A stretch of DNA of 30,356 nucleotides from Candidatus Bathyarchaeota archaeon (GTDB lineage: Archaea; Thermoproteota; Bathyarchaeia; Bathyarchaeales; Bathycorpusculaceae): positions 1-30,356 of the forward strand of contig CAVZKL010000021.1 of the NCBI GenBank assembly GCA_963775895.1, written 5' to 3'. Under the pieces are notes generated by a model. That model was given only the letters and a program-made list of their open reading frames with translations. It was not told where the DNA came from and ran no database searches. This document shows, one piece after another, positions 10,720-30,356 of the stretch. Every line of letters starts with the position of its first letter. Within the stretch, counting starts at the first letter, position 1. A program made the translations under genes and the position numbers.

Positions 10720-10802
10720 GCATATTTGGATCCTAATATTCACGATACATTGAAACCGAGGAGGGGGAGGGTACACAATAAGCTTTTTTTCAGCGAATAA
10801 AC
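10720..10802 (+). repeat. Conserved non-coding element, copy 1 (inverted partner at 30230-30311)
   Basis: GCATATTTGGATCCTAATATTCACGATACATTGAAACCGAGGAGGGGGAGGGTACACAATAAGCTTTTTTTCAGCGAATAAAC; differs from the reverse complement of 30230-30311 by 2 substitutions and 1 indel. Confidence 0.97.
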
Positions 10803-10918
10803 ACCTCATAACCGCTCACCCATCCAATGTTTCATAAGCTTGAAGACCGAACAACATCTTAATATCAACAAACTTCCACAAGTGATAACACCAAAAACGC
10901 ACTCAAGCGGATGAAAAA

Positions 10919-11818
10919 ATGGGATACCATGAACTCTTCGTTTCACCATCAAACATCTTCAGCGGACTCCAAACACCATACGCGAAAGCAGACTACATAA
11001 TCCTCGGAGTCCCCTTCGACGTCACGAGCACCTACCGAACGGGCGCAAGATTTGGACCCACAGCCATCCGACAAGCATCACTCAACATCGAAACCTACAG
11101 TTTCAGAACCGGAATCGACCTAGAAGACCTACGGCTCCACGACCTCGGCGACCTCCACGTCTCAACAGACACCACAAAAACCCTAGAAATGCTTCAAAAA
11201 GTAACAGAAGACATCACAAAAACCCACAAGACACCCGTAACCATCGGAGGAGAACACACCATAACCTACGGCATAACCAAAGGCCTAGGAAAAAAATCAC
11301 AACAAACCGCCATCGTCAGCTTCGACGCACACCTCGACCTAAGAAACGAATACTCAGGACTCAAAATGTCCCACACAACCTTCATGCGAAGAACCAACGA
11401 AGACGTGAAACCAGCCAAAATCATCGAAATAGGAACACGCGCAGTTTGCAAAGAAGAACTCGAATACGCAAAGCAAGCCGGCGTAGAGTTCTTCACAACA
11501 CACGACATCAGAAAAGAAGGCAGCCAAACCATAGCAAACAAGCTAAAACAAAAGCTCGCAAACTACCAGAACATCTACTTAACAGTCGACATGGACATCC
11601 TCGACCCAGCGTTCACACCAGCCGTTCAAAACCCCGAAGGAGACGGCCTAGAAATGCACCATCTCCTAGACATCCTGAGCACCGTCTGCGACAAACGCGT
11701 CATCGGGTTCGACGTTCTAGAAATCGCTCCCCAATACGACCAAGGAATCTCCGCAGTTCAAACCGCAAAAGTAATCTTCGAAATGCTCTGCAGCATCGAA
11801 AAATCAAGAAGAACCTAA
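10919..11818 (+). CDS. speB: Agmatinase (ureohydrolase family)
   Basis: GVPFD.TSTYR.GARFGP.AIR, GGEHT, FDAHLD, SHTT, DMDILDP. Confidence 0.93.
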   Translation: MGYHELFVSPSNIFSGLQTPYAKADYIILGVPFDVTSTYRTGARFGPTAIRQASLNIETYSFRTGIDLEDLRLHDLGDLHVSTDTTKTLEMLQKVTEDITKTHKTPVTIGGEHTITYGITKGLGKKSQQTAIVSFDAHLDLRNEYSGLKMSHTTFMRRTNEDVKPAKIIEIGTRAVCKEELEYAKQAGVEFFTTHDIRKEGSQTIANKLKQKLANYQNIYLTVDMDILDPAFTPAVQNPEGDGLEMHHLLDILSTVCDKRVIGFDVLEIAPQYDQGISAVQTAKVIFEMLCSIEKSRRT

Positions 11819-11907
11819 CAACAAAAGAACCCAGTTAACTCTTTAAGAACTAGGACAAGAGATTTTAGGAAAACCCAAACATAAAAGCACCCAGGTCCAG
11901 AACGGAG

Positions 11908-14600
11908 ATGGCGCAGAGACACTTAGAAGAGTTTTCAGCATTGAAACACAGCCCCCTAATGGAAAGGAAAGGGGAACCCACGGCCCTCATGACCACCCAC
12001 GGTACAACAGAGAAGAAAGAAAACAAACACTGCTTCCCCCCCGTTGCTCCAGAAAACCTACCATGTTCATACTTCGTGTCGGCCACTTACGACGGAAAAA
12101 CCCGCAAAGCCCTCATCAAACTCTACGAACCAATTTCCAGCCAGATCTATTTCTGGTACGACAACACCCAACACCAACCATACTGCCTGACAAACCTTTC
12201 CCCATACGAACTTGAAAAAATCAGCCGCGTCACTCATCACGAAGGCTTCGACCGTTTGGAAAACGTCGAAAAATTCGATCCATTGTCGAACAAAAAAGTA
12301 AACATCACAAAAATAATCACCAAGGACCCGCTAGCCATCGGCGGACGTCCATTCTGGATGCATCAGAGACATAATACCCGAAGACTTCCCAAAAGTCTCA
12401 GAAGTACCCGTGAACCCTGACGACATCAAAGTCTGGGAATCAACCATAAAATACTATCAATCCTACATCTACGATCAAGGACTACTTCCCGGAATGATCT
12501 ACGAAGTCAAGGAACTCCAAACTTGTGATCAAGAAACTCGAAGACGTTGAAAGAACGGTAAGCCAAATACGAGACACGTTCAAGGATGCAACACCCGAAG
12601 AGTTAGATTTCATCGAAGAATGGGCAAGACTACTCGAATATCCAGCCCCCAAATTCCGACGCGTCGCCCTCGACATCGAAGTTCTCGCACCAATTCCCAC
12701 CAGAGTGCCAGACCCGAGACAAGCAGCCTACCCCGTTATCTGCGTTTCACTCTGGAGCTCAGACAAACCCAAGAGAGTTCTTCTGCTGAAACGCAAAGGA
12801 ATCCGTGAAGGATCAGAACACTTACCCGCAGACGTGAAGCTCGAAGAATTCGACACGGAAGACGAGCTGATCAAAGCCGTTCTGGAAGAACTTTGGAATT
12901 ACCCCTTCGTGTTAACGTTCAACGGAGACGACTTCGACCTGAGGTACCTGTTCCATCGCTCGATGAACCTCGGAATCAGGACAAACGAGATCCCAATAGA
13001 AGTAGGCAAACGATCCTGCACGCTAAACTACGGAGTTCACATAGACCTCTACAAATTCTTCTTCAACCGTTCAATTCAGATCTACGCCTTCAACAACCGC
13101 TACAAAGACGTCACTCTGAACGACGTTGGCAAAGCCCTGATAGGACTAGAAAAAATCCCGTTAGCCAAGACCCTAGGCGATCTCACCTACAGTGAACTGG
13201 CGAAATACTGCCTCAGAGACTCTGAAATCACCTACAAACTGACGAGTTTCGAAGACGAACTCGTGATGAAGCTGATCCTAGTTCTGACGAGAATAAGCAC
13301 CATGCCCATGGAAGACGTCACAAGACAAGGAGTTTCGCGCTGGATACGCAACTTCCTGCAGCGCGAACATCGCAAAAGGAACATGCTTATCCCAAGCCCT
13401 AAGGAAATCTTGGCAACAAAAGGCAAAACAGCAACCAAAGCAATAATCAAGGGCAAAAAATACAAAGGCGCAATCGTCGTCGAACCCGTCCCAGGCGTAC
13501 ACTTCAACGTTGCCGTAATGGATTTTCCAAGCCTATACCCGTCGATAATAAAAGTGTGGAACCTCGGATATCAATCCATCCTCTGTTCACATCCAGAATG
13601 CCGGAACAACGTAATTCCAGACACGCCACACTGGGTTTGCACCAAGAAACGAGCCCTAGAAAGCCTATTGATAGGTTCCTTGAGAGATCTGCGCGTCCAA
13701 TGGTACAAGCCCAGATCCAAAGATAAATCGTTGAATACCGACCTGAGAAGCTGGTACAACATCACTCAGGGCGCTCTCAAAGTCATTCTGAACGCAAGCT
13801 ACGGAGTGTTCGGGGCTGAAACATTCGATCTGTACTGTCCCCCAGTGGCCGAGGCAACGGCGGCGATCGGCAGACACTCCATAACTCAGATACTTAACAA
13901 GGCAACACAGCTGAGCATTCAAGTGCTCTACGGCGACACGGACAGCATTTTCCTAAAGAACCCATCGAAACAGCAAATCGAGGAACTGGCGCACTGGACA
14001 GAACAGAAACTCAAGATGAGTTTGGACGTTGACAAGGTGTACAGATACGCCGTCTTCAGTTCGCGCAAGAAAAACTACCTCGGAGTCTTGGAAGATGGAA
14101 CGGTCGACGTTAAAGGACTAACGGGAAAGAAGAAGCACATACCGACGTTCATCAAGAAAGCCTTCGACAAGATGAAAGACCGACTCGCAAAAGTGAAAAC
14201 ACCCGCAGAGTTTGAGAAAGCTAAGGAAGACATCGTCGAAATCGTTCGTGATTGTTACATGAGATTGAAAAGGCGAGAATGGGAAAATATGAACGAGCTT
14301 GCGTTCAACGTTGTTCTGGGCGAGGAAATCGAGCACTACACGAAAACCACGCCGCAACACGTCAAAGCCGCGAAGATACTGCAAGAAAAAGGCGCGGAGT
14401 TGAGGGCGGGTGACCTGATAAGCTTCGTAAAGACATCGAAGCCTCCAAACGTCAAACCAGTTGAACTGGTAACAAAAAGTGAAGTCGACGTCGACAAGTA
14501 CATCGCCTATCTGCGCTCAACATTTGATCAAGTTCTGGACGCCCTAGGACTGGAATTTGACGAGATCATAGGCCTGACGAAACTAGAAAGATTCATGTGA
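11908..14600 (+). CDS. polB1: Family-B DNA polymerase, PolB1 type (two apparent frameshifts near 12352 and 12511)
   Basis: N-terminal YDGK..KALIKLY..YFWYD; bridging frame GCIRDIIP..VWESTIKYYQSYIYD.GLLPGM; ExoI DIE, FNGDDFD, YCLRD, DFPSLYPSII, KVILNASYG, YGDTDS, KKNY. Confidence 0.93.
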
Positions 14601-14607
14601 ACAACGC

Positions 14608-15165
14608 TCAACGCTCCGCAGCGACCCTCAGTCCGTGAGACTTCAAAGGTTCAATAATTCCTTTTCTACTAATGATTGAGAGCAGCGTGTAACCGAGTCC
14701 TGCGATCACGATGAGACTACTTATCGTTATGCTAACGATCATCGCTCCCCACGCAGGCAAAACATTTAGAACCTGGGGAGACAGTATTCCCGGAAGCACC
14801 CATAGATAACCCCCGACAATCACGCCTATGGGAAAAGCTCCCATTATACACGCAAAGAAGCGATGTCTTCTCAGTAGAAAAATGACGCTCGCCGCAATCA
14901 GATTCGCGATCGGCCCAAAAATAACGTCTTGCGGCGCCAAGAAATAATAAGCGTTCGTGAGGAAGCAACCGACAGTCACGCCACCCACTACCGGAATTCC
15001 AAGGAGCGCGGCCAAAGGAATAAGACAGTCTGCGAGACGCAGTTGGATTGGCCCGTAAATCGTTGGATTACCAATCGAAACCATTTGAATAATGTTCACT
15101 ATCACGTACAAAGCAGCAAAGACACTTGCTAAGACCAGATCTCTACTATCAAATCTCGTTTTCAA
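14608..15165 (-). CDS. queT: QueT-family transporter (queuosine/archaeosine precursor S-component)
   Basis: Hydrophobic; FAALYV, YGPIQLRLAD, GVTVGCFLTN, DVIFG: QueT pattern. Confidence 0.85.
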   Translation of the reverse strand: MKTRFDSRDLVLASVFAALYVIVNIIQMVSIGNPTIYGPIQLRLADCLIPLAALLGIPVVGGVTVGCFLTNAYYFLAPQDVIFGPIANLIAASVIFLLRRHRFFACIMGAFPIGVIVGGYLWVLPGILSPQVLNVLPAWGAMIVSITISSLIVIAGLGYTLLSIISRKGIIEPLKSHGLRVAAER

Positions 15166-15228
15166 TGCCTCCGCAACCCGGGATTTCTAGGGCGGATCGG
15201 GCGGAGGCCCCGCTCACCCGCCAAACAT
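15166..15228 (-). promoter_or_regulatory. Structured GC-rich 5' leader of queT (candidate riboswitch)
   Basis: TTTAATTA TATA-like box at 15256-15249, then a ~60-nt leader with competing stems GGCGG/CCGCC and GCCUCCGC/GCGGAGGC; the second covers GGAGG next to the start codon. Confidence 0.55.
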
Positions 15229-15281
15229 TTAGATCTGAATAGTCTGGCTAATTAAATGTTCCTGAAGAAGCATGCGCTCAG

Positions 15282-16186
15282 TCAACGCTTCACTTCAATA
15301 CTGATATGCTGGAAAACAAAAGCCAAAATCGTCGTCAAGGCAACCAGAAGCGAAGTCACCAAGACCGCCTGTCGCTCGGTTAATGGGTTTCGGTACGTGA
15401 TGAGCGTCAACAGACTCCTCCTGTGGTCCGAAGAAAGTTTATTCCCGTCGAAAGAAAGGGTTGCCTTCCTGCGATAAAAAAAGAAAGTGAGCAAAATCAA
15501 AGCCGAATTGAAAATGTAGGGCAGAAGAGAGATCGCCAAGATGAACTTCAAATCGGATATTATGGCAAACGAAGCCAACGTCGTTCCAATGGCAAACGAT
15601 CCTGTGTTGCCCACAAATATTCGCCCACGAAGATTCAGGGCAGCAAGCACGAGCCAAGTTATCAGAGGCGCGTAAAGCAGGTTGGCGTTTGAAACCGACA
15701 TTGCCATTAGCCCTATCAAGACTATTGCTGGACAAATTGTTTCCAACCCGTTTAGGCCGCCAAGCTGGTTAACAGTGTTGGTAAAAATCGTCACCAACAC
15801 AGGGATCATTATAAAGTAGTAATAGACGCCGAAATCAATCCTCGCCCATTAATGGAATAGTCATGTAAGTTCGCAGTCTCAATCCGTAGGCGAAGGAGCT
15901 GAGCGGAATTGCTGCAATCAAAGGTAGAAAGGCCTTGTAACGCCATTTCAAGTCAACCCAGTCATCGAGCATTCCCATAAAACCGCCGAACAGGATACAC
16001 ACGGCCAATATCAGAGGTGCTGAAGACGCCAGACTCAGAGGCAAAGATGTGCTGTCTGGTTCCTATGACGTTGAAAAAATAGAGAAGGAAGAGATACACG
16101 ACGCTGATCATGACGTAGAACACGCCTAACCCGTTAGAAATGAGAGGCTTGTTTGGCTTGTGCTGGTCGGGGACTTTGGGAAACAA
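15282..16186 (-). CDS. Glycosyltransferase family 4 (MraY/GPT/AglH-like polyprenyl-P HexNAc-1-P transferase), two apparent frameshifts
   Basis: Three ORF pieces join: PDQHKPNKP..G.G, GMLDDWVDL, NTVNQLGGLNGLE, IFVGNTGS; lies directly downstream of aglB. Confidence 0.85.
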
Positions 16187-16198
16187 TGCCCCGTCTCC

Positions 16199-18477
16199 TT
16201 AAGTGCTTGGGTAATCTTGGTTGTATTGGTCCCAGTTGATCTTGTAGAGGCATACTAAAGGCACGAGTCCACCATAATAGTTCTGTGAATCCGTCGATGA
16301 CAGGGTCTCGCCTGAGAAGAACTCTTCCTGGAAGTATGTGGGCTGTGTAACGTTTCCTGCGTCAGGATCCGTTACACCGTTGACTGTGCACCAACGGTCT
16401 TTGCCCCAACTCATCAACTTGTAAACCGTCGAGTTGAGACCAACGTCATTCCAGATCCCATTGGTTGTTGGTGAAGTTCCCGAAGGTTGTCTCGTTCTGC
16501 CAAGAAGAAGCTGGGTCGATGAGACTCTGATTGATGAATCTCTGTTGCGCGTTGCCCGAGATCTTTGCCATCCAAGTCCATTTTCCATTGTCACCGCCCG
16601 CCCAATCAACCCAGCTACCCTGATAGCTGAAAGTGTCAAAGACAAGTACGTATTTCGTGTATTTTGGATCGTACTGTTTGAGCATCTTGAGCGAATTACT
16701 CTCGTTTGCCATGAAAGCAAAACCAGTGTTCTCTATGGCCGTGTTGTTTATGGTCGTGTTGTCTGATAGCGTTGTTACGTTGCCTTCTACCGTTATCCAC
16801 AACCCGTAGTCCCACCAAGCAACAACGACAGTGCTCTGGTCATGCAGATTGGACAGGTAAGTCAACATGTCCAGCCACTCATTCACAGGCTTGCCGGGAA
16901 CTGCTGCAAGACTGCCTGAAGAGATTGTAATTGGCGCGTAAGCTGAACTGATGGCCTCAGGAACCCCACCGTACTGCGGCGAAAACGCCAAGTTGGTCAT
17001 CAAAACAATGAATATCAAGAAAACCGCCGCTCCGCTGAACTCTTTCCCTACGTGTTCCAGTCCGAACTTCTTCTTTACGGTCACTTTAGGCGGTTCTCTA
17101 ATGAGGGACACAAATGGCTTGAGCAGACCCACTATCCCGACACCTGCCAACAGAGCAAACGCTGGAGCCAGCAGATACAGGAGGCGCACCATCGAAGCAG
17201 CAAAATAGGCCGCTGTCAAACCAAAAAGCAACACGAAAAGATTCTTGGTCGTTGGGTTCCTTGCAACGAAGAACAGGCCAACTGCAAAAAAGAGTATGCC
17301 AATTCCGAGGTCGTAATATATTGAACCCCAAGAAGATATTCTGTGTTCCGCCACAGACTCCACGAGCGGGTTAGCACTTGCAAGGAACGGGTTCAGGACT
17401 CTAATAAACTTGCCAGCTATGCTGTTCGTTCGCCCCCGCTGCGAAAATAACAGTGAAGCTACCTACCAAACCGACCAAGATTCCAACAGCCAAGGCAAAC
17501 TTGGCTCTTGCCGAAGCTAAATTACGCAAAACTTCATTCAGACAAAGCAGAAGGAACACGCCTAGAACAGGTAACACTGCGTAGCTTGTAACGTACCGCG
17601 GCGCCAGAAATGGTGCTTGTATCGCCACTAGCAGACCAAGTCCAAACGTCAGGCTGTAGGCGAAGAGTACGCGTCGCGTATACCTTCGTAGCACGAGCAA
17701 AACGAAAACGAAGAGTACGGTCAGATCGAGCAGGTAGTAAGCTGCTCCCCATCCCATCACGGAATAGGCCAAGCAGGCTGCACAGGCCAGCGAGTATTTT
17801 ACTGATGAGCCGATAGATCTTTCTTCGTCAATTGCCCTCGGGAACATCAAAAAGAACAACAAGAAAGAGAACGTGGTCATTTCGGTCTCGAACCAGCCCA
17901 GATTGGTTCTTGATATGAATGACGGTTCTAATGCTAGAAAAATGGCGGCAAGAAAGCCAACGGGTTTCCCTCCGATTTCCTTTCCAATGAAATAGATGAT
18001 CAGCACGCACAACGTTCCTGTTATCACAGGGAGAAATGAACAGAAGGTCATGAAGTCAACGTTAACGCCAAAGAGAGAGAATAGGTCATAAAGAGATGCC
18101 GCGGTAAGCGGGATAGAAGGTAACGTTTCGGTAGCCATGTTGATTCCAGTTGGGAACCAAAAGTGTGTATCAATCCACTGTGTTGGCCAGTAAGGTGATA
18201 ACAGACCATTCTTAACCATGTAGCTGGCAACACTGAATTCAAAGTACGAGTCGAATTCAGACATCTGTAGCTGTCCTGTCCCTAATTGCTCCCAACGAAG
18301 CGGAAGAATTCGGACAGTGAAAGCGACGAAAAGTATGAGAGCTAATGTTGCGAAGGTCAGTATCGCGCTATGGTTGGTTTTGATTCGGAGTTTGCCCAAG
18401 CTTTTCAGACCGTTGGAAAAACGTTCTCTCGAAAAGACGTTGCTGGGCTTCACTTTGGCTTCATCTCTTTTTAACAC
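16199..18477 (-). CDS. aglB: Oligosaccharyltransferase catalytic subunit STT3/AglB, two apparent frameshifts
   Basis: SEFDSY, multiple TM helices, SVAEH, SMVRL, WWDYG, DNTT motifs across ORFs 17401-18477, 16446-17363 and 16199-16720. Confidence 0.93.
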
Positions 18478-18588
18478 ATTTCTTTTAGGTGTTTTATTTT
18501 CCTTGCGGTAGTCGTAAAGTTAAGATTGTTGACATGAGAGGCGCGGTTCATATATACCTTTCCAAAGTTCAGAATTGAGAAGATCAAA

Positions 18589-19750
18589 TCAGGTGACCGC
18601 GGGTTTGCGCTTGTACCCAAACCTTTCTGGATCATATAGCGGAAATGTTGACAGTCTGGCTTTGGCGATTCTTTCACGTATTCTTACGTTCAGAATAGAA
18701 CCTTCTTGAGCTTGAGACACCTCAACATATCCCATGCCTACACCCATTCTAAGAAGCGGTGAAAACGTGCCGCTTGTCAGTCGACCCACTGGCTGTCCAG
18801 CCGCGGAAAAAAGCTCAAATCCAGACCGAGGTATCCCTTGATCTATCATCTTAATTCCGACACGTTTGCGTTTAATCCCAGCATCTTTCTGTTTGAGCAA
18901 TGCTTCTTTTCCGATGAACCGCTCTTTCTGCCACTTGACAACAAAACCTAAGCCCGCCTCCAAAGGCGTTGTGCTTTCATCTATGTCGTTTCCGTAGAGG
19001 CATAGTCCCGCTTCCAGCCTAAGAGTATCTCTCGCCCCAAGACCGCAGGGTTCTATTCCCAAGTTTCTTCCGGCCTCAAGAACCGCGGCCCATAACTTCA
19101 GCGCATTTTCGGGTTTGACTCGTTGAGGCATTCCAGATGAAGACTTCAAAGCCATCCTCGCCCGTGTAACCCGTACGTGAAAGAAAAACATCCACGCCCG
19201 CAAGAGTGCAACGGCCGCACTTGAACCTTCCGATCTTGCTCAAATCTTCATTGGAGATTTGTTGGAGTGTTTTTTCAGCATTGGGGCCTTGAACCGCACA
19301 CATTGCCACAGTGTCCGAAACGTTTTCAATATTCACTTTGAAACCATGCGCGTTTCTTCTGAACCAATCCAAATCTTTTTCGCGGTTGCTCGCGTTAAAA
19401 ACCACCAAAAATCCTTCTTCCAGCCGGTAGACGACAAAGTCGTCGACTATTCCACCCCTTTCAGTGCACATAACCGAATATTGGGCACCAAGCGACGAAA
19501 GGATTGAAACATCGTTTGTTATAACAAAGTTCAAAAACCGTTCGGAATCTTCACCTTTTACCAGCATGCGACCCATGTGGCTTATATCAAATATGCCAAC
19601 ATTGTTGCGCACAGCCAGATGTTCCGGCGCGATATCTTTGTAGTAAAGAGGCATTTCGAAGCCTGAAAACAAGGTCAACTTTGCTGTCTTTGCGTGCACT
19701 CCGTACAACTGTGTTCTGCGAGGCTTCCCGCTCAAAGTCTTTTTCCCCAC
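18589..19750 (-). CDS. gcvT: Glycine cleavage system aminomethyltransferase T, one apparent frameshift near 19120
   Basis: FSGFEMPLYY, EHLAVR, FDISHMG, SRTGYTGEDGFE, GLGARDTLRLEAG..LYG. Confidence 0.93.
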
Positions 19751-22442: not shown

Positions 22443-22871
22443 TTGATGTCAAAGACAGTTAAGAAAAGCATATCTTCAATTTCGTTTTCTTTGAATAGGC
22501 TCTATCGCGCTCTTTCGACTACAGGGCGATCAAGTTTCATCCTACCGGTAATTGTGATTGCAGCAGTCATCTTCTTCTTCGGGGGCGGACTGTATGACAT
22601 CATCATGAAACCACTTCCAGCTGTCTATTACGGCGGGCGGTTCCTATTCCTCTATCCGCAACTTTCTGAGCAGTTTATTTCGGATAGCATTGTTTCGATG
22701 ACCGTTTATGTCTTGGGCATCGTGGGACTACTAGCTGTGTACCAGAGTACGAAAAACGTTTACAGGCCGAGACAGGCGTACATGATGATGATCATGGGAA
22801 CAGCATTGCTGCTAATTGCTTACATATTCTTGGAAGCCTCAATACGGCTGAAAATAAGTGGTGCTGTCTAG
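22443..22871 (+). CDS. Membrane protein, OST3/OST6/DC2(OSTC)-like oligosaccharyltransferase accessory subunit
   Basis: Three TM segments; FFGGGLYDII..P...FL...L..QFISD.IVS....LG..GL resembles the OSTC/OST3 TM module (from memory, not a search). Confidence 0.65.
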   Translation: MMSKTVKKSISSISFSLNRLYRALSTTGRSSFILPVIVIAAVIFFFGGGLYDIIMKPLPAVYYGGRFLFLYPQLSEQFISDSIVSMTVYVLGIVGLLAVYQSTKNVYRPRQAYMMMIMGTALLLIAYIFLEASIRLKISGAV

Positions 22872-22877
22872 TCCTAT

Positions 22878-23375
22878 TCACCAAGGATTGCTTTTCAGTT
22901 TGAGCTTGTAGGCCACATAATTCGTTATTAGATGAATAGGCGGAGTCAACAACAGAACAGTTACAATTAGCTCCCAGCTTCGCGCTAGGGAGAGAGGAAT
23001 CGAAAAGAGAATCGCACCAAGTATGAAGTCGATCTGATCCACGACCGGCAACAATCCTCCAGGTGGAATGTTGAGCCTACGCTTTAAGAAGGCACCAGTT
23101 AAGTCTCCGACTAGTGCGCCTAGGGAAACAATGAAACCAAACATTATCGGGTAATCAAAAACCGCGGTTTCAGCGAGACCTGTGACTGTTCCAATTGCCA
23201 GCCCCGCAAAGAAACCACGATAAGTCTTGTTTTTCCCAAAGATCGGCCTCCCGTCTGGCAGCGTTTTTCCAAGATCAATCGATTTTCCACCTCCAGCAAG
23301 CACGGGCACGGCGTTTGCACAGTACGCTGGAAATATGAATTTCAACGCTTCAATGATCAATTGTGTTGCGTCCAT
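22878..23375 (-). CDS. carS: CDP-archaeol synthase
   Basis: PAYCANAVPV, ID.G....DGR.IFG.NKT.RG, GDL.GAFLKRR, DQIDF, LK..PW. Confidence 0.95.
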   Translation of the reverse strand: MDATQLIIEALKFIFPAYCANAVPVLAGGGKSIDLGKTLPDGRPIFGKNKTYRGFFAGLAIGTVTGLAETAVFDYPIMFGFIVSLGALVGDLTGAFLKRRLNIPPGGLLPVVDQIDFILGAILFSIPLSLARSWELIVTVLLLTPPIHLITNYVAYKLKLKSNPW

Positions 23376-23387
23376 TTGTGAACCCCA

Positions 23388-24084
23388 TTAGTGAAAGGTA
23401 TGATCATGTATTCCGGTTTGCCCGATTCGCAGATCATATTTCGCTGACGCAAGTTTTACAGGATTTTTTTCCACTTCTGCTCTTATTATTGTTGGGTTTT
23501 CCGTGAGCCTCAGCGCCAAGACCGTGTCGGCCCAGAATTTCAAGACTCTTGTGGCGACAGGTTCGACGCTAACTGGCAATTCATTGAACACCGCGTGGAC
23601 CTGACTCGTGAGTAAAACTCCGATTTTTTGAGTTTTTGCAGTCTGTGCAAGAACTGCTAGTTGCCTGTTAAGCTCTCGGTTGAGTTCAAAAGTTTTTGAA
23701 GGTGACTCAGCGATTCTCAGACGATAAAGTGAAGTTATCGTGTCGAAAACTACGAGTTTGAAATTCTTGTTCAAATAGTCAGTAAGATGATCGACTAGTG
23801 CTGTTTGTTCGCGAAAGTCTTCAGGTCTGGCGAGAATTATGAGCTCAGAGATTTCATTGTAATCGTCAGGTGCGATCTGAGAAAGCCTGCGACCCGAGAA
23901 GGTTCTTTCAGTATCTACGAACATTGCTTTGTAGGCCGTTTTTCGCACAATTCGCGGCACACTGCATGGCAAGCGTAGTCTTGCCTGTTTCTGCCTCTCC
24001 ATAAACGAGCGTTAGACTCGCAACTGGGAAACCGCCCATCAAAGACTCGTCGATTGCTCTGCAGCCCGTTGGAATTTTCTCCAA
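23388..24084 (-). CDS. radB: RadB-like RecA-family ATPase, one apparent frameshift near 23935
   Basis: IPTGC..ID..L.GG, Walker A GEAETGKT, FVDTE, VVFDTITSLYR, TSQV; no RadA N-terminal domain. Confidence 0.8.
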
Positions 24085-24165
24085 GTTAAAGCACGTCAAC
24101 AGATATAAATTGCCAAACTATAATGTGTTTTGCGTTTGCACACTTCAAATTGCTAGGACTGCCGT

Positions 24166-24828
24166 ATGAAAGCAAGAATAGCCGTGGTAACCGTTTCGGG
24201 AAGAGCCTACTACATCATCGTCAACGAGCTTAAGAGAAAAAACATTCCTTTTCTAAGCTTGACCCCTCATGAATCTGTTCCGATAGGAATCAAAGTTGTC
24301 ATAACGACAGAAGCTGAGAAGAGATTTGTAAACCATGAGAGAGTCTTAACGTACAAGCCTGGTGTCGAACCTTCAGTCTTGGCAAATGAAGCTTTGCAGA
24401 TTGTTCAAGGAAAAGAGACCTTCGAGAAAGTTATCATAGGCGTAGACCCGGGTGAAGTGTTCGGTTTGGCAGTACTGGCGGGTGGGCGTGTTATGGAGAC
24501 AGACAACTGTTACAGTGTAAAAGATGCACTTAGCAGGATTGAATCAATGGTTCGAGATCTTGAAAGTGTGCCTGTGGCATCGATCTCCGTAAAGATTGGC
24601 AACGGAGTTCCTGAGTGCGAAGAGAAATTGTTCCGTGCACTCGACAAGTCACTGCCAAAGAGAGTTACGTTGGAAAGCGTGAGAGAGGAAGGAACAGATT
24701 CTCGTCTAGACGAAGCGAAACATAGAAGAGGGTTAAGGGATATAGTGTCGGCAATACAAATAGCTGGGAGAATTGGGCAAACGTACCGCAGGAGAAAAAC
24801 GGATGAATCGTACGGTCGAAAAGGATAA
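24166..24828 (+). CDS. Hypothetical protein with C-terminal RNase H-like (YqgF/RuvC-type) fold
   Basis: IIGVDPG..FGLAV, KIGNG, VREEGT, DIVSAIQIA acidic pattern. Confidence 0.65.
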   Translation: MKARIAVVTVSGRAYYIIVNELKRKNIPFLSLTPHESVPIGIKVVITTEAEKRFVNHERVLTYKPGVEPSVLANEALQIVQGKETFEKVIIGVDPGEVFGLAVLAGGRVMETDNCYSVKDALSRIESMVRDLESVPVASISVKIGNGVPECEEKLFRALDKSLPKRVTLESVREEGTDSRLDEAKHRRGLRDIVSAIQIAGRIGQTYRRRKTDESYGRKG

Positions 24829-26117
24829 GACTCTGGTGGTCGACGGACCGGCCTCTGTGACATTGTGTTCGGGGAAAGTGGAGGTCTTTGGATCTGAATT
24901 AGCATTAACAAGCAGAGTTGTTATTCGCGAGGGAAAAAGGCTTCCTTTCTTAGTTCAAGAGAAAGCCGTGCTTGACATCTCTGTTGGGGACAAAGCAGCT
25001 GCTGAAGAAGTTGACGGCAGTACGATTCCTTCCTCATGGACGGAATCGGCAGAACAGCTGCTTGAAATTCAGACCAAAACCGCGATCGGATTGGTTCTCG
25101 GAACGGTTGATTCTGGAAAATCGAGTTTTTGCACTTATCTAATCAACAGAATTCTTGCTGATAAACGGAAGGTTGCGGTTCTGGATGGCGATTTGGGCCA
25201 ATCAGATGTCGGGCCGCCTTCAACGATTGCTTATGCCATTGTGTCCAAACCACTCACTGATCTGTTCAATTTGCAAGCAAGAAGTGCTTGTTTCATTGGG
25301 GAAACATCACCTGGCAACGTTACAGAGGAGATGATCCGAGGCCTATCGTTGCTCAAGAAGGAGATCATCGTCAAAGACCTAGACTTTCTCATTGTAAACA
25401 CTGATGGATGGACTGAAGGCGAATGCGCTGTGAATTACAAACTTAGGCTGATCGAAGAACTTAGCCCCGACTTGATCTTCTCCATCCAACAGCAGGATGA
25501 GTTGGGACCAATCATTAACGGGCTTGGAAGATTCAGGATAATCTCGGTAGAGTCACCTTCTGCGATAAGGCAAAGAGATAGAGAAAAGCGAAAGAGCCTG
25601 CGAGAGCTTGGGTACAAGAAATATCTTCGGACACCGAGAGTTCAATCTCTCTCCTTGAGCTGGGTTAAGATCGAAGGGGACGAATCTTTCGGGCTGAGTA
25701 AAGGTCGCACCCTCACCAGGGAAGCAAGAAAAGTCAACGAGATGCTTGGAATGAAGCCTCTGCACGTTGCCGAGTTAACTGACAGGATCAACATAATCAT
25801 CGGCAAGAAACGCTGGATTAGTCAAGACAACATAAAAAAGGTGGAAGAACACACGAAGAAAAGAATTGTCGTGACAAGAAAGGGCGAAGAAGAAGGGCTT
25901 CTTGCTGGGAATGTATGACGCCAACAGAAAGTTTCTCGGCATTGGAGTGGTACAAGAGATTGATTATCTGAGGAAGGCAGTGAAGGTTCTCAGTCCGGTT
26001 TCGGATGAGGTCTCGATCTTGGTTTTGGGCAAGATCAAACTTGATAAGAACATGAAGGAGATTTCTCCGCCTGAGGAAAACAATGTGGATTTTGGGTCTT
26101 TCAATAAGCTTTTCTGA
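24803..26117 (+). CDS. Clp1/Grc3-like polynucleotide 5'-hydroxyl kinase, one apparent frameshift near 25907
   Basis: VDGPASV, P-loop GTVDSGKS, DGDLGQSDVGPP, NTDGW, RxRxxRxxLR; the C-terminal GLLxG..D...FLGIG continues in ORF 25902-26117. Confidence 0.88.
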
Positions 26118-26773
26118 ACAGGTTTCTTGACGGGCAAAGCTTATTCAATGGGCAAGAGTCACAAAGCGGGGATCTTGCTTTGCAGTATTTCCTGCCGTGA
26201 AGGATGAGAAGTACGTGGACTGCTAGGTAGTTTTGACGGCTGTACGATGATTGAAGAGTCTGGCGGACGGCTTCGTAATCAGCATTCGCAGATGCGAGGA
26301 ATAATCGTTTTGAGACCCTGTTGACGTGAGTGTCGACTGGCACCGTTGCTTTGTTAGCAGCAAACAGCAAGACGACGTCGGCGGTTTTCGGTCCAACGCC
26401 GTGGAGTTGCATCAGCTCGGTTCTTGCCTCTTCAAGAGGTTTTGACAGCACAGACTTCAAATCGCCACTATACTTTTCGAGAACTGTTTTTGAGACTTGT
26501 TTTATTACTTTGGCCTTGTTTCGGTACAGTCCCGCGACTTTCAAGCAGGCTTCTATCTGTCTTGTTTGGGCGTTGGCCAAGGTTTCGGCGTTTATTCGAA
26601 AATCGTTCGACAGTCTTTCGAAGGCCTTTCTGAGTGTTTCTGTCGTTTGTGTTTTGCGAGATGATCGTTAGGATGAGGGTTCTGAAGGGGTCAGCTGCAG
26701 ATTTCGTCCATCTAGGCATCTGGTATGTGCGTTTAAGCACTTTCAGGATTTCTTCAGCGTGTTTGTTAACCAT
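26101..26773 (-). CDS. nth: Endonuclease III (HhH-GPD, Fe-S), one apparent frameshift near 26628
   Basis: DPF..LI.TIISQNTND, GLYRNKA, L.GVGPKTA, VDTHV.RV..R, C-x6-C-x2-C-x5-C. Confidence 0.93.
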
Positions 26774-26845
26774 CAGATGGCTCCTATCTTGAAAGTGATA
26801 AATAGTGAAAACGTGAACCTATAAATAGCAAATGGAGAGAGCGCA

Positions 26846-27217
26846 GTGGAACGGGCAAGAGTCGTAAAGGACGAGATAGTCGAGCAGAACACGCGTTTTC
26901 TCGCCGTCTACGTTGAAGCGAAGAATTCGTGCTTGGTATTGTTGAGTGAGAAAGAAGATAAGATGGGTACGTTGGTTATTGCCGTTCCAAGACCGAAAGA
27001 TTTGCTGGGTCCTCCGTCTTCTTCCGTGCTTTTAGGCGACAAGAACTCTGCTACTGCGCGCATGTTCGCGGAGTATCTTGCGATGCGGAAGGAGAAGATC
27101 GCGTTGGTTTCGGTTTATCTTGAAACGATGGATGAAAGGCAGGCGCAATCGGCGTTCAAACGCTTGCTGGACAAGGTGACCTTTGAACAACCTCAGAAGG
27201 AGGGGTTGACCGCTTGA
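26846..27217 (+). CDS. Proteasome assembly chaperone PAC3/PAC4-like protein
   Basis: KMGTLVIAVP...SSVLLGD.....ARMFAEYLA.R..K..LVSV.L resembles the PAC3/PAC4 fold pattern (from memory). Confidence 0.6.
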   Translation: MERARVVKDEIVEQNTRFLAVYVEAKNSCLVLLSEKEDKMGTLVIAVPRPKDLLGPPSSSVLLGDKNSATARMFAEYLAMRKEKIALVSVYLETMDERQAQSAFKRLLDKVTFEQPQKEGLTA

Positions 27218-28635
27218 GTCTGAGAGAATTTCTCAAGCAGATGGAAAAGCAAAAAGAAGTACTCCATGTAGAAGAGAGCGTGTCACCTCGTTTTGACATT
27301 TCCTACGTGGTGAGATGTTTTGACAAGGATGGACCAATAATCTTGTTTGAAAACGTGAGAGGCTTCAAAACGAGAGTCGTTGCCAACGTTTCAGGAACAC
27401 GCGGCAGGATGTGCAGGGCACTCAACGTAAATTCGGAGGGGCTTTACAGAAAACTGGCCGATGCTTGGCGTTCACCCGTCAAAGCTAAGACTGTGACGAG
27501 CGCTGCGGTGAAGGAGCGTAAGGAGAAGGCAATAGATTTGACGAGGATACCGGTCTTGACGCATTTTGAGAAGGATGCAGGGCCCTACATCACTTCGGGT
27601 GTCGTGCATGCTAGAAGCGCTGACGGCGAGGTTGAAAACCTTTCTGTTCATCGCCTTCAGGTCTTGGATAAGCACCATATGGCCATCCGCTTGGTTCCAC
27701 GTCATCTTTTCAAGCTGTGGCGAACGGCAAAGGAGAGTGGAAAGGATTTGGATGTTGCGATTTCTATAGGCGTTCATCCAGCCGTATTGTTGGCTGCTGC
27801 TTCTCCTGTGCCTTTCGGTTTGAACGAATATGATGTTGCCAATGCTTTGATGAACGGTCGTTTGAAATTGGCTCAGTGTGAGAGTGTTGATGCGGCGGCT
27901 CCGGCTGAAGCGGAATTGGTTCTGGAAGGAAAGATTTCGGCGGCAGAAGTTGCGGAGGGACCGTTCGTTGATGTAACTGGAACTTATGACGTTCAGCGTG
28001 TGCAGCCTGTGGTCAACGTGGTGGGAGTTATGCATAGAGAGGATTATGTCTATCACGCTCTTCTATCGTCGGGGGCGGAGCATATGCTTCTGATGGGGTT
28101 GCCGCATGAGGTTTTGATTTGGGAAGCGGTCTCAAAGGTTGTGCCCAAGGTTTACGCCGTTAATCTTTCAAGAGGCGGAAGCGGATGGCTTCATGCGATC
28201 ATCTCCGTTGAGAAACAGTTAGAGGGTGACGGCAAGAACGCTCTGCTGGCGGCGTTTGGGGCACACCCAAGTCTGAAACACGCGGTGGTTGTCGATTCCG
28301 ATATTGACGTTTTCGACGTTTCAGAGGTTGAGTGGGCCATAGCAACGCGTTTTCAGGGGCGTGAAGATCTTGTGTTGATAAGTGATGCCCGTGGTTCGAC
28401 GCTGGATCCTTCAGCGGATCAGGAGAAAGTGTTGACTTCGAAAGTCGGTTTCGACGCCACAAGGCCTTTTTCGAAACCGAAAGAGAAGTTTGAGAGAGCG
28501 AGAATTCCAGGTAATGATGATCTTGAACGACTGGTTCGAAGGCTGGGCGGAAAATCACTTAAAGATCGGGTTGACGTAATAGCAAGAGGTTTGAAAACAG
28601 GAAGTAGGTTGGATTGGGTTGACGGAAGAAAGTAA
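27214..28635 (+). CDS. ubiD: UbiD-family prFMN decarboxylase (probably anhydromevalonate-phosphate decarboxylase of the archaeal mevalonate pathway)
   Basis: SLREFL, DAGPYITSG, SVHRL, EGPFVD.TG.YD, VVVDSDID, EWAIATR, GSTLDPS, K.G.DAT. Substrate assignment is inference. Confidence 0.9.
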   Translation: MSLREFLKQMEKQKEVLHVEESVSPRFDISYVVRCFDKDGPIILFENVRGFKTRVVANVSGTRGRMCRALNVNSEGLYRKLADAWRSPVKAKTVTSAAVKERKEKAIDLTRIPVLTHFEKDAGPYITSGVVHARSADGEVENLSVHRLQVLDKHHMAIRLVPRHLFKLWRTAKESGKDLDVAISIGVHPAVLLAAASPVPFGLNEYDVANALMNGRLKLAQCESVDAAAPAEAELVLEGKISAAEVAEGPFVDVTGTYDVQRVQPVVNVVGVMHREDYVYHALLSSGAEHMLLMGLPHEVLIWEAVSKVVPKVYAVNLSRGGSGWLHAIISVEKQLEGDGKNALLAAFGAHPSLKHAVVVDSDIDVFDVSEVEWAIATRFQGREDLVLISDARGSTLDPSADQEKVLTSKVGFDATRPFSKPKEKFERARIPGNDDLERLVRRLGGKSLKDRVDVIARGLKTGSRLDWVDGRK

Positions 28636-29107
28636 GAAGGAAAGTGAGTCTATTCTGAGAGTTGCGGATGTAATGGTCAGAGAAGTGATTACTATCGATG
28701 AGGAGTTGACGGTCAAGGAAGCTGCGGAAATAATGAACAAGTTTGAGATTGGATGCGTGATCGCTGTGAGAAGAAGCAAGACTATGGGGATTTTGACGGA
28801 GCGAGATCTGCTGAAAAGGGTTGTTGCTGAAGGAAGGGACGCTTCCAAGATTAAGGTTAAAGATGTTATGACGAGTCCTTTGGTCGTTGCCGAACCGGAC
28901 ATGGACTTGGGAGAGGCGGTGAAGTTGATGTTTCAGATGAAGATCAAGAAACTTCCGGTCGTTGATGGTAAGAAGCTCGTGGGGTTAGTGAGTCTGACTG
29001 ACATTGCTCGTTTCCAGCCTCAGATGATCGTGGTGTTGAAGCAGCTTGCGGCAAGTCAGGGTGCGCCGAAGAGTATGCAGAAAGTCATAGATCGCTACGT
29101 GGTATAG
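28619..29107 (+). CDS. CBS-pair protein
   Basis: VADVM, GILTERDLL, IKKLPVV..KLVGLVSLTDI. Confidence 0.92.
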   Translation: MTEESKKESESILRVADVMVREVITIDEELTVKEAAEIMNKFEIGCVIAVRRSKTMGILTERDLLKRVVAEGRDASKIKVKDVMTSPLVVAEPDMDLGEAVKLMFQMKIKKLPVVDGKKLVGLVSLTDIARFQPQMIVVLKQLAASQGAPKSMQKVIDRYVV

Positions 29108-29171
29108 GCCTCGTTGGGTTCACGGGCTTCGAAAGAAGTATAAGCGCCCTTTTTTTCATTCTATCACTGCA

Positions 29172-30229
29172 ATGAGAACGCTAGTCTTGGAAGTTGATCC
29201 GGAGCGGCCCGATTTAGAGAAGGTGCGCAGGGCTGCGGATTTGATTAGGAGAGGCGGTTTGGTTGCTTTTCCAACTGAAACGGTTTACGGGCTTGGGGCA
29301 GACGCTTTGAACGCTGAAGCGGTGTTGGCGGTTTTCGAAGCGAAGAAGCGTCCGCTCGATAATCCTCCGATCGTTCATGTGTGCAGTGTGAGGGATGTTT
29401 ACAGGTTGGCTGAAGAGGTTCCTGTGAAGGCTAGGATGTTGATGAAAGAGTTTTGGCCCGGTCCGCTGACTTTGATTTTGCGACGCTCGGACATCGTGCC
29501 TGACGTTACGGTGGCAGGCTTGGACACTATCGCCGTCAGGATGCCCAGGCACAAAGTTGCGTTGGCGCTGATCAGGGGGAGTCGTTGTCCTATTTCGGCT
29601 CCGAGCGCGAATCTTTCGGGGAGACCCAGTCCGACGATGGCGGGGCATGTGTTGGAGGATCTTGACGGCAGGATTGATGCCGTTCTGGATGCTGGGTCTA
29701 CGCGAATCGGGGTGGAGTCGACGGTTTTGGATTTGACTGTTGATCCGCCGCAGGTTCTGCGGCCCGGTGGGACGTCTTTTGAGTTGTTGAAGAGGAGGCT
29801 GGGGGAGGTGGAGCTGAACGTCTGCGGTGACGGCTGAGAAGGATTTGCCGTGTGAGACGGCGCGTTCGCCTGGGGTTAAGCATAGGCATTATGCTCCTAA
29901 GGCTGATGTTGTGCTGGTTGAGGGTGGGTTGTCGGCTGTGACTGCGAGGATCAGGGAGTTGGTGGAGTTTTATGGTCGCGTAGGGAAGCGTGTTGGTGTG
30001 CTCTGCACCGACGAGACCGTGGAGTGCTACAGTGCGGATGTGGTGAGGTCTGTTGGAAGCAGGAGCTGATTTGGCGGCGGTGGCGCACAACTTGTTCGGG
30101 CTTTTGAGGGAGTTTGACTCGGAGGGTGTGGACGTGATTGTTGCTGAAGCGTTGCCGATGGAGGGGTTGGGGTTGGCTGTTATGAACAGGCTTCGCAGGG
30201 CTGCGGGGTACAAGATCGTTAAAGCTTAG
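29172..30229 (+). CDS. sua5: Threonylcarbamoyl-AMP synthase Sua5 (TsaC + SUA5 domain), two apparent frameshifts (near 29822 and 30062)
   Basis: VAFPTETVYGLGA, K.RP.DNP.IVH, FWPGPLT, APSANLSG.PSPT, GVEST, SPG.KHRHYAP; final frame AHNLF..LR.FD...GLG.AVMNRLRRAA ends at TAG 30227-30229. Confidence 0.95.
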
Positions 30230-30311
30230 GTTTATTGGCTGAAAAAAAGCTTATTGTGTACCCTCCCCCTCCTCGTTTCAATGTATTGTGAATATTAGGA
30301 TCCAAATATGC
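30230..30311 (-). repeat. Conserved non-coding element, copy 2 (inverted relative to 10720-10802)
   Basis: Reverse complement GCATATTTGGATCCTAATATTCACAATACATTGAAACGAGGAGGGGGAGGGTACACAATAAGCTTTTTTTCAGCCAATAAAC; begins immediately after the sua5 stop. Confidence 0.97.
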
Positions 30312-30356
30312 CGGTGTGGCTTGGGTCACAAAGCATGGAACACCTGTGGTCTTGTC

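Follow-up and report, generated by a model that had tools for sequence, protein, structure and literature searches.

The stretch of DNA analysed here (the window; 30,356 nucleotides) lies on contig C21 of a Candidatus Bathyarchaeota genome of 1.77 Mb (G000; 88.76% complete, 28 contigs) and carries two near-identical copies of a short element, inverted and facing each other across 19.4 kb of housekeeping genes (Table 1). The block comprises speB, the genes for a family-B DNA polymerase, QueT, AglB/STT3, GcvT, topoisomerase I and CarS, a RadB-like gene, and the genes for Clp1, EndoIII, UbiD, a CBS protein and Sua5. The gene contexts are those described in a first-pass annotation of this DNA: the HTH gene and speB stand beside copy 1, and the stop codon of the Sua5 gene (30227-30229) directly adjoins the 3' end of copy 2. 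A TATA-like box of speB's own sits between copy 1 and the speB ATG. The transporter remnant on the outer side of copy 1 matches G006 (69.6% over 112 nt, E=9e-7) and retains the motifs LGWFFL and IFLVF. No tRNA or tmRNA was found within the window, and no Cas1 family member among the 28 window ORFs scanned. A casposon or linear element was rejected despite the presence of a family-B polymerase, since the rest of the block is housekeeping in nature and syntenic in congeners.

Table 1 Features of the window, with coordinates counted from its first nucleotide
Feature	Position	Strand	Basis or remark
HTH_3/HTH_31 gene, outer neighbour of copy 1	9666-10436	-	Own TATA-like promoter; syntenic with G001 at 1651 kb
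Degraded 3' remnant of EamA-family transporter gene, outer side of copy 1	10463-10650	-	
Copy 1, A-type	10694-10802	+	Repeat search, blastn, nhmmer, alignment, translation
Copy 1, weakly conserved 5' extension	10694-10719	+	
Copy 1, imperfect palindrome	10721-10740	+	
Copy 1, gene-start-derived core	10726-10767	+	TTG plus 13 codons = LDPNIHDTLKPRRG
Copy 1, 3' tail with seven-T run	T run 10784-10790; end 10802	+	
Block of housekeeping genes between the facing copies (19.4 kb)	10803-30229	n/a	
speB, arginase family, flanks copy 1	10919-11818	+	
Sua5 (threonylcarbamoyl-AMP synthase)	29091-30229	+	Three frames: 29091-29837, 29818-30069, 30047-30229
Copy 2, A-type, inverted, facing copy 1	30230-30337	-	Repeat search, blastn, alignment, translation
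Copy 2, core	30230-30311	-	
Copy 2, T run	30248-30242	-	
Copy 2, TTG homologue	30305-30303	-	
Copy 2, outer extension	30312-30337	-	

Alignment of 10720-10802 (+) with 30230-30311 (-) confirmed the near-identical inverted pair of 83 bp reported before, the cores of ~83 nt being 2 substitutions and 1 one-base indel apart; in copy 2 the old reading frame is shifted by a one-base deletion. A repeat search of the window returned the inverted arms 10754-10802/30230-30278 (49 nt, 96% complementary) and 10694-10756/30275-30337 (63 nt, 83% complementary); the weaker outer extension of 26 nt is likewise real. The contig ends 19 bp past the extension of copy 2, which is 33 bp past the match and 45 bp past the core, and contig C15 ends inside a copy. 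The suggested assembly break in the repeat at the window end is plausible but not general: among the 56 ends of the 28 contigs, these are the 2 that lie in or close to a copy.

The first-pass annotation took the element to be present twice, whereas the genome holds 36 copies by blastn (36 matches at E<=1.2e-14) and by nhmmer (36 matches at 54-68 bits). The next best nhmmer matches, at no more than 15.5 bits, are reverse-strand matches on the palindromes of the same loci. Units are ~85-175 bp long and ~95% identical (93-100% over 80 bp), and comparison of flanks showed that the 36 copies have unique ones, with few strain-variant or paralogous flanks only. On a crude ORF map 28 of the 36 overlap no ORF of at least 70 aa, and in the remaining 8 the overlap is with short ORFs or the ends of ORFs. 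Nine of 10 congeners, and other genera as well, carry related copies, the 5' ~50 nt being conserved across a family-level clade of Bathyarchaeia, and the motif has been kept over family-level time at 7-44 copies per genome. The congeners show 7-12 pattern matches per 2.3-2.4 Mb versus 36 in the 1.77 Mb of G000, and in related genera the element is assembled as a modular mosaic from tandem units of 58-62 bp. Phage and plasmid collections gave no match, and IMG/VR no exact pattern match. The element is, as had been proposed, a conserved, dispersed and oriented chromosomal one, multi-copy in related genomes. It also belongs to no named family, with 0 Rfam matches at gathering score and, in a permissive search, nothing beyond noise (mir-362, snoPyro_CD and PK-repZ, E 0.66-9).

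The core is a copy of the upstream region, the start codon and the first 14 codons of a conserved small gene. The start codon lies inside the palindrome described below, and translation from the TTG of every copy yields LDPNIHDTLKPRRG or a near variant. The intact gene of G000 is on contig C22, where the copy reads on for 123 aa into a family that we label P0001 (115-123 aa, four predicted helices; 57% identity by tblastn). Database homologues of P0001 start with LDPNIH or MEPNIH, and the element also lies 40-70 nt before the homologous gene in the genomes G303, G375, G390 and G349. The earlier description of the element as non-coding is right in that the copies hold short open frames only; it calls for qualification in that the core reproduces the start of a conserved small gene, start codon and 14 codons included. 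P0001 itself has sub-threshold Pfam matches only (SSV1_D-63, E=0.013; DUF6730, E=0.02), and its AlphaFold model (pLDDT 73.6, four helices) found no Foldseek PDB match at E<=0.001 (best E 1.1).

Two forms of the element occur in G000. The longer B-type (8 copies) retains codons 15-23 of the P0001 gene. The A-type (28 copies, including both in the window) is a derivative in which a small hairpin of the codon 15-23 stretch is flipped, which removes an ATG (the gene's own start is the TTG, not that ATG) and yields six or seven consecutive T. A-type copy number is raised three- to five-fold over congeners. Variation in 24 distinct copies from congeners amounts to 4, 19 and 50 at the first, second and third codon position, respectively. 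This third-position bias could mean that the copies are kept master-like by gene conversion, or that they are themselves constrained and not inert. In the genera g33 and g47 many copies carry in-frame stops, and the corresponding figures (83, 102, 94) show no bias.

The sole palindrome of the element is internal. It is 18-20 bp long, A+T-rich and centred on GGATCC, spans the start codon and is perfect in congeners. Terminal inverted repeats are lacking, as the aligned 5' and 3' ends of the copies are not complementary, and a 7-nt inverted match flanks one copy only (C16:69066). No target-site duplication was seen either, the flanks sharing no direct repeat in an alignment with fuzzy boundaries and subfamily-specific extensions; on both points alignment of the copies agrees with the first reading of the window pair. 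With respect to the downstream gene, 19 copies have the same direction and 16 the opposite one, and such random orientation suits an element acting at the level of DNA better than one that regulates genes. A promoter or terminator of the neighbouring genes, already discounted in that first reading, was rejected on the same ground, and also because speB and the HTH gene have TATA-like boxes of their own.

Four of the five element sites that are syntenic with the congener G001 are empty there, where empty can mean insertion in G000 or loss in G001; at one of them an intergenic region of 182 bp in G000 compares with 6 bp in G001. As to enzymes, Y1 transposase (PF01797) gave 0 matches in G000, with matches in the control genomes, and the TnpB zinc ribbon (PF07282) gave one sub-threshold match only in this 88.76% complete genome.

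The copies coincide with points of breakage and rejoining of the chromosome in evolution. Of the 30 gene gaps that contain an element, 5 retain synteny with G001, compared with 773 of the 1128 remaining gaps (Fisher P=1.1e-8; 2.0 of the 2.35 Mb of G001 compared, with crude ORF calls); among gaps shorter than 1 kb the figures are 3 of 11 and 742 of 964 (P=7e-4). The 19.4-kb block of the window is one collinear block in G001 (1167-1188 kb) with different neighbours. In G001 and the congener G005 the EamA gene is intact and lies between the HTH gene and a different block of 12-16 kb, and ~1.65 kb (two genes) has been lost at the junction beside copy 1. The interior of the pair on contig C7 likewise forms a single block that is collinear in G005 and G001 and has its breakpoints within 22-150 bp of the elements, and the block of the pair on contig C10 is inverted relative to both. 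In the block map, neighbours have been exchanged between the window block and that of the C7 pair. The element is absent from these block boundaries in G001 and G005. Two inversions and a flip would fit the recorded adjacencies of G001, G005 and G000, as one such series among others. Among contigs assembled from four DNA runs, joints at the copies were not seen, nor did any of the pieces listed span the copies; since contigs break at such repeats, structural variants are undetectable in them and the result says nothing about such variants.

We regard the 83-bp unit as probably a member of a non-autonomous, dispersed Bathyarchaeia repeat family that inserts and recombines. Its core was copied from the start of the P0001 gene, of which the B-type form keeps a longer part, and the A-type derivative has multiplied. 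Copies would insert into intergenic DNA, as the empty orthologous sites suggest, and because they are ~95% identical they would serve as substrates for ectopic recombination, which would leave them at the junctions of inversions and block translocations. In the window, the 19.4-kb block appears to have replaced another element-flanked block relative to the congeners, the two genes at the junction being lost in the process. Copy number, gene-start origin, empty sites, enrichment at synteny breaks and the bias towards facing pairs are direct observations; the manner in which copies spread, and the causation of the rearrangements by recombination between copies, are inferred. The element is best read as MITE/REP-like, in a variant form that originated from a gene start. 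Several observations stand against this: the ends are fuzzy, with no terminal inverted repeats or target-site duplications found, no transposase of the families searched (Y1 and TnpB) is tied to the element, and the orientation of neighbouring copies, described below, is left unexplained by random insertion followed by homologous recombination.

The Sulfolobus solfataricus MITEs SM1-SM4 occur in 25-44 copies per genome (PMC10969869, in the part of that article available to us). Compared with MITEs as presented in that part, the element is similar in being ~85-175 bp long, intergenic, present in 36 copies and without a transposase of its own, in showing presence/absence differences between related genomes, and in its association with genome shuffling. 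It differs from them in lacking terminal inverted repeats, in that no target-site duplication was seen and no cognate insertion sequence found among the transposase families searched (Y1 and TnpB), in deriving from the 5' end of a cellular gene and not from IS ends, and in that close neighbours face each other. The REP/BIME elements of bacteria are mobilised by RAYT (Y1) transposases. The present element resembles them as an extragenic, palindrome-containing repeat that is long conserved, forms modular mosaics in related genera and probably acts as a recombination substrate; in contrast, its host is an archaeon, no Y1 transposase was found in G000, a start codon lies within the palindrome, which is rich in A+T, and adjacent inverted doublets are lacking. 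Putative mobile promoters represent the propagation of promoters in prokaryotes. Here, too, the upstream region and start of a gene have been copied to many unrelated loci; unlike mobile promoters, the copies are not aimed at downstream genes, and in the A-type a T run follows right after the start region.

Neighbouring copies less than 30 kb apart face each other in 10 of 13 cases and diverge in none (P=3e-5). The ten facing pairs enclose 4-26 kb each (4.2 kb in the closest inverted pair of G000), and no diverging pair is closer than 49 kb. G349 (P=0.008) and G390 (P=0.048), which represent two other genera, show the trend as well, with smaller gaps between facing than between diverging copies, and homologous recombination leaves this equally unexplained. 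Pair mates are not parent and daughter copies, being no more alike than random pairs (mean identity 0.568 versus 0.569 overall). None of the explanations tried accounts for the facing-pair bias. One that builds on it is programmed cassette shuffling, in which a site-specific recombinase, probably of the tyrosine type, would cross over at the palindrome spanning the start codon. Facing pairs, whose asymmetric tails lie inside, would then delimit chromosomal cassettes for this enzyme to invert, excise and reinsert. Pair interiors are indeed single collinear blocks, inverted (C10) or exchanged (C7 and the window). Since a palindrome used for crossover lacks polarity, it would permit inversion as well as excision, and an integrating circle with a tail-palindrome-tail arrangement would yield the tails-inward geometry; a double-tailed palindrome exists at G368:C110:1879-1930. 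There are ~10 tyrosine-recombinase matches in the 1.77 Mb of G000, and integrase-driven inversions in Thermococcales provide a precedent (PMC5495485, in the part available to us). As in the Thermococcales inversions of that part, and in invertible segments and shufflons, inverted copies bound segments, here of 4-26 kb, at least one of which is inverted and two exchanged relative to congeners. The segments differ from such systems in being large housekeeping blocks, not phase-variable loci, and in having no recombinase gene beside the copies: all tyrosine recombinase genes are at least 2.8 kb from any copy (the nearest lies 2.8 kb from the C9 copy), and no serine recombinase was found in G000. 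An nhmmer search found no bare palindromes or double-tailed sites in G000, at least 8 copies are unpaired, the block boundaries in G001 and G005 have no element, and the loss of ~1.65 kb beside copy 1 is not a clean site-specific exchange. We consider both the recombinase-driven crossover and the cassette role of the facing pairs unlikely.

It is quite unlikely that each copy is a functional transcription unit, that is, an active promoter and start site giving a short RNA or a peptide of 17-70 aa, and no less doubtful that the A-type transcript would end at the T run acting as an archaeal terminator. As the unit stems from the 5' end of a genuine gene, the promoter and start of that gene are probably included in it. 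Read from the TTG, all 36 copies stay open over 17 codons or more, the A-type run of T6-T7 lies 58 nt after the TTG, and congener copies vary mainly at third codon positions. Against this, several copies have frame-changing one-base indels in the 14 core codons (LKRGG... instead of LKPRRG...), the peptides diverge after residue 16, many of the g33 and g47 copies are interrupted by stops, the copies of these genera vary without codon-position bias, and a canonical TATA box at a fixed distance was not seen. Nor would transcription explain the synteny breaks and facing pairs. The small-RNA gene offered as an option in the first-pass annotation gains no support, and a structured RNA was rejected: five folds on both strands were no better than shuffled sequence (z-scores -0.74 to +0.96), the window has no Rfam match at gathering score, and 20 related loci have matches to tRNAs only.

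A family of protein-binding sites seems very unlikely. The palindrome would be the operator of a dimeric DNA-binding protein, possibly an autoregulating P0001 protein, and the dispersed copies, with as little likelihood, a regulon, a titration sink or polar boundary sites of chromosome organisation. In favour of such a role, the palindrome changes symmetrically on both arms between genera (ATATTTGG...CCAAATAT versus CTATTTGG...CCTAATAG); its retention over family-level time fits as well, and the convergent-pair geometry resembles that of polar boundary elements. However, the neighbouring genes are unrelated and randomly oriented, the helical bundle modelled for P0001 matches no DNA-binding fold and its Pfam matches are below threshold, and identity of 93-100% over 80 bp far exceeds the need of a binding site.

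Summed contig depth of the element compared with its flanks was 4453 versus ~25, 406 versus 7, 141 versus 5 and 294 versus ~4 in the metagenomes X1, X3, X6 and X7, respectively, so that the repeat is multi-copy in four independent metagenomes from four studies; X1 is possibly the sample from which the genome came. An assembly artefact, chimera or adapter, envisaged at the outset as what could undo the finding, is therefore practically excluded: the contig ends near or inside copies, the indel errors of the assembly and some fold-back contigs would suit it, but it is contradicted by this depth, by the unique flanks of 36 copies and by the related copies in congeners and other genera.

Bathyarchaeia are abundant uncultured archaea of sediment and soil whose genomes come from assemblies only, and to our knowledge their mobile and repeated DNA is almost undescribed. 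The dispersed repeat family accounts for the places at which gene order is interrupted between species of a genus, indicates where assemblies may break and provides a concrete marker for tracking genome rearrangement. It is unusual among dispersed prokaryotic repeats as a copied gene start with a palindrome over the start codon, and in the nearly invariable facing orientation of close neighbours. Should this orientation rule stem from a dedicated system for recombination or boundary setting, an archaeal chromosome would be organised or reshuffled in a novel manner. It is doubtful that a recombination system operating across the chromosome uses the start-codon palindrome as its crossover site and moves housekeeping cassettes of 4-26 kb as units; if one did, Bathyarchaeia would have a built-in, site-directed reshuffling of gene order, possibly with polar boundary sites.

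Two further candidates were considered and rejected. The ...ATTGAAAC motif, which we take to resemble the 3' end of CRISPR repeats, raised the idea of a CRISPR-like solitary repeat, but a k-mer scan found no array in the genome, the CRISPR-DR families of Rfam gave no match, and the core is coding-derived. An origin recognition box was discarded since the TTCCA-N-TGGAA dyad is absent from the element and canonical boxes occur at the true origin. At that origin, located ahead of orc1/cdc6 (G000 C18:25749-27020), there are two TTCCAGAGGAAA boxes, in agreement with the ORBs of Pyrococcus (PMC1904270).

The first-pass annotation had described a near-identical, inverted element of about 83 nt as present twice in the window. 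Alignment bears out the two inverted stretches, whose cores differ by 2 substitutions and one single-base indel, and a repeat search of the window resolved them into paired arms of 49 nt (96% complementary) and 63 nt (83% complementary). The surroundings are also as described, with copy 1 flanked by a divergent HTH_3/HTH_31 gene and the arginase-family speB gene, and copy 2 abutting the Sua5 stop codon. The count, however, was too low. A blastn search with the 109-nt unit gave 36 matches of 83-100% identity in the host genome G000 (28 contigs, 1.77 Mb, 88.76% complete, 3.46% contamination; the window is contig C21), and a profile of the 55-nt core recovered all 36 again (54-68 bits). Other profile matches scored at most 15.5 bits, mostly reverse-strand hits on palindromes of these loci, which sets the family apart as discrete. 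The window element genuinely belongs to a family of dispersed repeats in Bathyarchaeia that had not been described. Flanks of the copies are unique, except for a few strain-variant or paralogous contigs. Four metagenomes, each from a different study, had a summed contig depth over the element 28 to 180 times the depth over its flank. On a crude ORF map, of assemblies of a kind that contains indel errors, 28 of the 36 copies overlap no ORF of at least 70 aa and the remaining eight overlap either short ORFs or the ends of ORFs. Orientation relative to neighbouring genes is random by the same calls (downstream gene 19 co-oriented and 16 opposite, upstream gene 17 and 18).

Two forms can be told apart by their ends, A-type (28 copies, including both in the window) and B-type (8 copies). 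They differ in a small hairpin with a T-rich loop in A and an A-rich loop in B, and the A-type hairpin is, in effect, the B-type hairpin inverted. With the inversion an ATG is lost (not the start of the gene discussed below, which is TTG) and six or seven consecutive T are gained.

Several loci of congeners have a small ORF after the element in the same orientation, one of which was taken as P0001, our name for a conserved small-protein family. The sole P0001 homologue in G000 directly follows a B-type copy on contig C22. Translated from the TTG of TTGGATCC, all G000 copies give LDPNIHDTLKPRRG or a near variant, and in the C22 copy the frame stays open over 123 aa and enters the conserved domain. 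All 112 database homologues of P0001 are from Bathyarchaeia, unnamed or 'hypothetical' and without Pfam domains; many start LDPNIH... or MEPNIH..., and the element lies upstream of the homologous gene in four further genomes (G303, G375, G390 and G349). Minor-allele counts at codon positions 1, 2 and 3 were 4, 19 and 50 among 24 distinct congener copies, and 83, 102 and 94, plus in-frame stops, among 33 copies from three other genera. The conserved core is therefore the beginning of a P0001-family gene (start codon and the first 14 codons), and the palindrome covers the start codon. The B-type tail corresponds to codons 15-23, and the dispersed copies are truncated copies of the 5' end of the gene. 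The P0001 protein is modelled as four helices (pLDDT 73.6), for which structure and family searches gave no structural match and no significant family match. The intact gene and its B-type element adjoin a 9-kb island whose 14 ORFs lack Pfam matches and which has a tyrosine integrase gene at its end; the island may be an integrated mobile element.

The element was matched in nine of ten congeners, where only the 5' ~50 nt are conserved and the palindrome is perfect (CATATTTGGATCCAAATATG). A 32-position pattern, allowed at most two mismatches, matched 21 of the 401 genomes sampled from the class, and its reversed control matched none. At up to three mismatches, congeners have 7-12 matches per 2.3-2.4 Mb and four genomes from other genera of the family 20-44. 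In these other genera the element is modular, with tandem units of 58-62 bp, each comprising the palindrome, then ...ATGYWGAAAC and ...AGAGGGGTAGGTC. In genus g33, where units of differing subtypes form direct tandem pairs, the family has a mosaic architecture (BIME- or BOX-like). Exact matches in a 185,579-species collection are in records titled Bathyarchaeia or Bathyarchaeota, apart from 4 of 50 loci titled Acidoferrum, Acidiferrales or Thermoproteota.

Copies of the element mark REARRANGEMENTS. For the first three copies tested, left and right flanks map apart in congeners. We then compared gene order genome-wide with one closed congener, G001 (2.0 of 2.35 Mb; best-hit orthologues from crude ORF calls, mean amino-acid identity 68.6%). 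Adjacency of orthologue-bearing G000 genes was kept for 773 of 1128 element-free gaps versus 5 of 30 element-bearing gaps (Fisher P=1.1e-8), and among gaps under 1 kb for 742 of 964 versus 3 of 11 (P=7e-4). Of the five syntenic element sites, one, beside a tRNA, is also occupied in G001 and the other four are empty there; at one empty site the intergenic region is 182 bp in G000 versus 6 bp in G001. The four empty sites are evidence for insertion or loss of the element. Breakpoints lie 22-150 bp from the copies (C10 and C7 pairs against congeners), and the C10 pair, whose copies face each other, encloses a block inverted relative to congeners G005 and G001. Intergenic DNA beside the copies, and near breakpoints, often contains short runs of alternating CG (GCGCGC...). 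tRNA genes are also common neighbours of copies (6 tRNAs within 60 kb from related loci); they frequently converge on the element, ~55 nt away from it at their 3' end, and one contains an intron and precedes the copy in G000 and G001 alike.

The interior of the window pair (10.9-29.8 kb) is a single collinear block in G001, at 1167-1188 kb, and the left flank maps to G001 1651-1656 kb. That flank is preceded in G001 and G005 by an EamA gene and a block of 12-16 kb, which in G000 sits on C7, likewise between a facing pair, and whose right neighbour there is the neighbour of the window block in G001 (1190-1191 kb). Thus the two blocks have exchanged places, both bounded by facing copies. Only a degraded EamA remnant is left on the copy 1 side, and G000 lacks a counterpart of the intact EamA gene of G001 and of the gene adjacent to it. 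The gene for a family-B DNA polymerase of 691 aa lies 1.7 kb inside the left copy; a casposon origin was rejected and the enzyme is taken as chromosomal, given its synteny in congeners and the absence of any Cas1 family among the block ORFs scanned. The housekeeping genes for AglB/STT3, GcvT, topoisomerase I and Sua5 span two or three frames, and at seven places the window has single bases absent from contigs of other metagenomes; the splits are probably one-base insertion errors of assembly rather than true pseudogenes.

On G000 contigs, ten '+ then -' gaps between neighbouring copies span 4.2-25.9 kb, three '- then +' gaps 49-113 kb, two '+ +' gaps 1.3 and 8.5 kb, and two '- -' gaps 8.1 and 58 kb. 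When orientations were randomised at unchanged positions, 3 of 100,000 trials gave at least ten facing pairs among neighbours under 30 kb apart; such close neighbours number 13, versus 13.0 expected at random. In lists of pattern hits, possibly incomplete, facing gaps were shorter than diverging ones in G349 (medians 38 vs 100 kb, P=0.008) and G390 (81 vs 248 kb, P=0.048), and not significantly shorter in G001. Pair mates in G000 are not mutual nearest relatives. This facing-pair rule does not arise from homologous recombination among copies inserted at random. It is predicted by a cassette model, in which the palindrome would be a polarity-free crossover site and the tails part of a mobile cassette. 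One palindrome in G368 has the asymmetric tail on both sides, as two overlapping opposite-strand copies, the form expected of a circular junction under the cassette model.

Coordinates of the element copies and associated features (window positions unless a contig or locus is named)
Feature	Location	Remark
Copy 1	10694-10802	+
Copy 2	30230-30337	-
49-nt arms	10754-10802/30230-30278	
63-nt arms	10694-10756/30275-30337	
Sua5 stop codon	30227-30229	
Family-B DNA polymerase	12525-14600	
Split genes	16199-18477, 18589-19750, 19958-22227, 29091-30229	last, Sua5, three frames
Extra single bases	15843, 16057, 16456, 16957, 17432, 19120, 25905	
C22 island	C22:53065-62441	L147:5035-14411
CG runs	e.g. 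C10:104400, C4:8000, C19:63480	congener loci L039, L046, L047, L064
tRNA-adjacent copies	C17:46300-46445, C27:60568-60856	also L039, L046, L047, L055, L057, L058, L092, L114, L117
Intron-containing tRNA	C17:46445	
Tandem subtype pairs	G349:C3:87908-88000, G349:C3:919120-919209, G390:C1:2023081-2023173, G395:C79:19529-19622	58-62 bp period
Double-tailed palindrome	G368:C110:1879-1930	L105/L115
Likely replication origin	C18:25000-25750	L120
orc1/cdc6	C18:25749-27020	
Self-complementary stretches	C22:1-9095, C24:14868-16428	91% and 86%

The element behaves most like MITE or REP-type repeats in being intergenic and non-autonomous, in its gain or loss between species and in its location at recombination junctions. 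It departs from their defining structure, since it has no RAYT and, in agreement with the first-pass annotation, no terminal inverted repeats or target duplication were found. Two traits are unusual, its origin from the start region of a gene and the convergence of close neighbours. Searches of phage and plasmid collections and IMG/VR viral contigs gave no match to the element. G000 has no Y1 transposase or serine recombinase hits, a single sub-threshold TnpB zinc ribbon hit and about 10 tyrosine recombinase hits, none adjacent to any copy. An origin box was rejected, as the likely origin upstream of orc1/cdc6 carries TTCCAGAGGAAA boxes instead, resembling Pyrococcus boxes quoted in PMC1904270. 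Rfam searches and folding came out against an Rfam family or stable fold, and a genome scan found no CRISPR array.

The likely origin on C18 contains two TTCCAGAGGAAA boxes, one of them with a G-rich string after it, together with a TTCCATTGGAA dyad and a stretch rich in A+T. C22 and C24 each have a stretch that matches itself in reverse complement, either a large palindrome or an artefact of fold-back assembly. Contig C2 is a variant, at 90-96% identity, of parts of C16, C23 and C7, and its arrangement departs from theirs exactly beside element copies, which indicates that the bin includes either a second strain or a chimeric contig.
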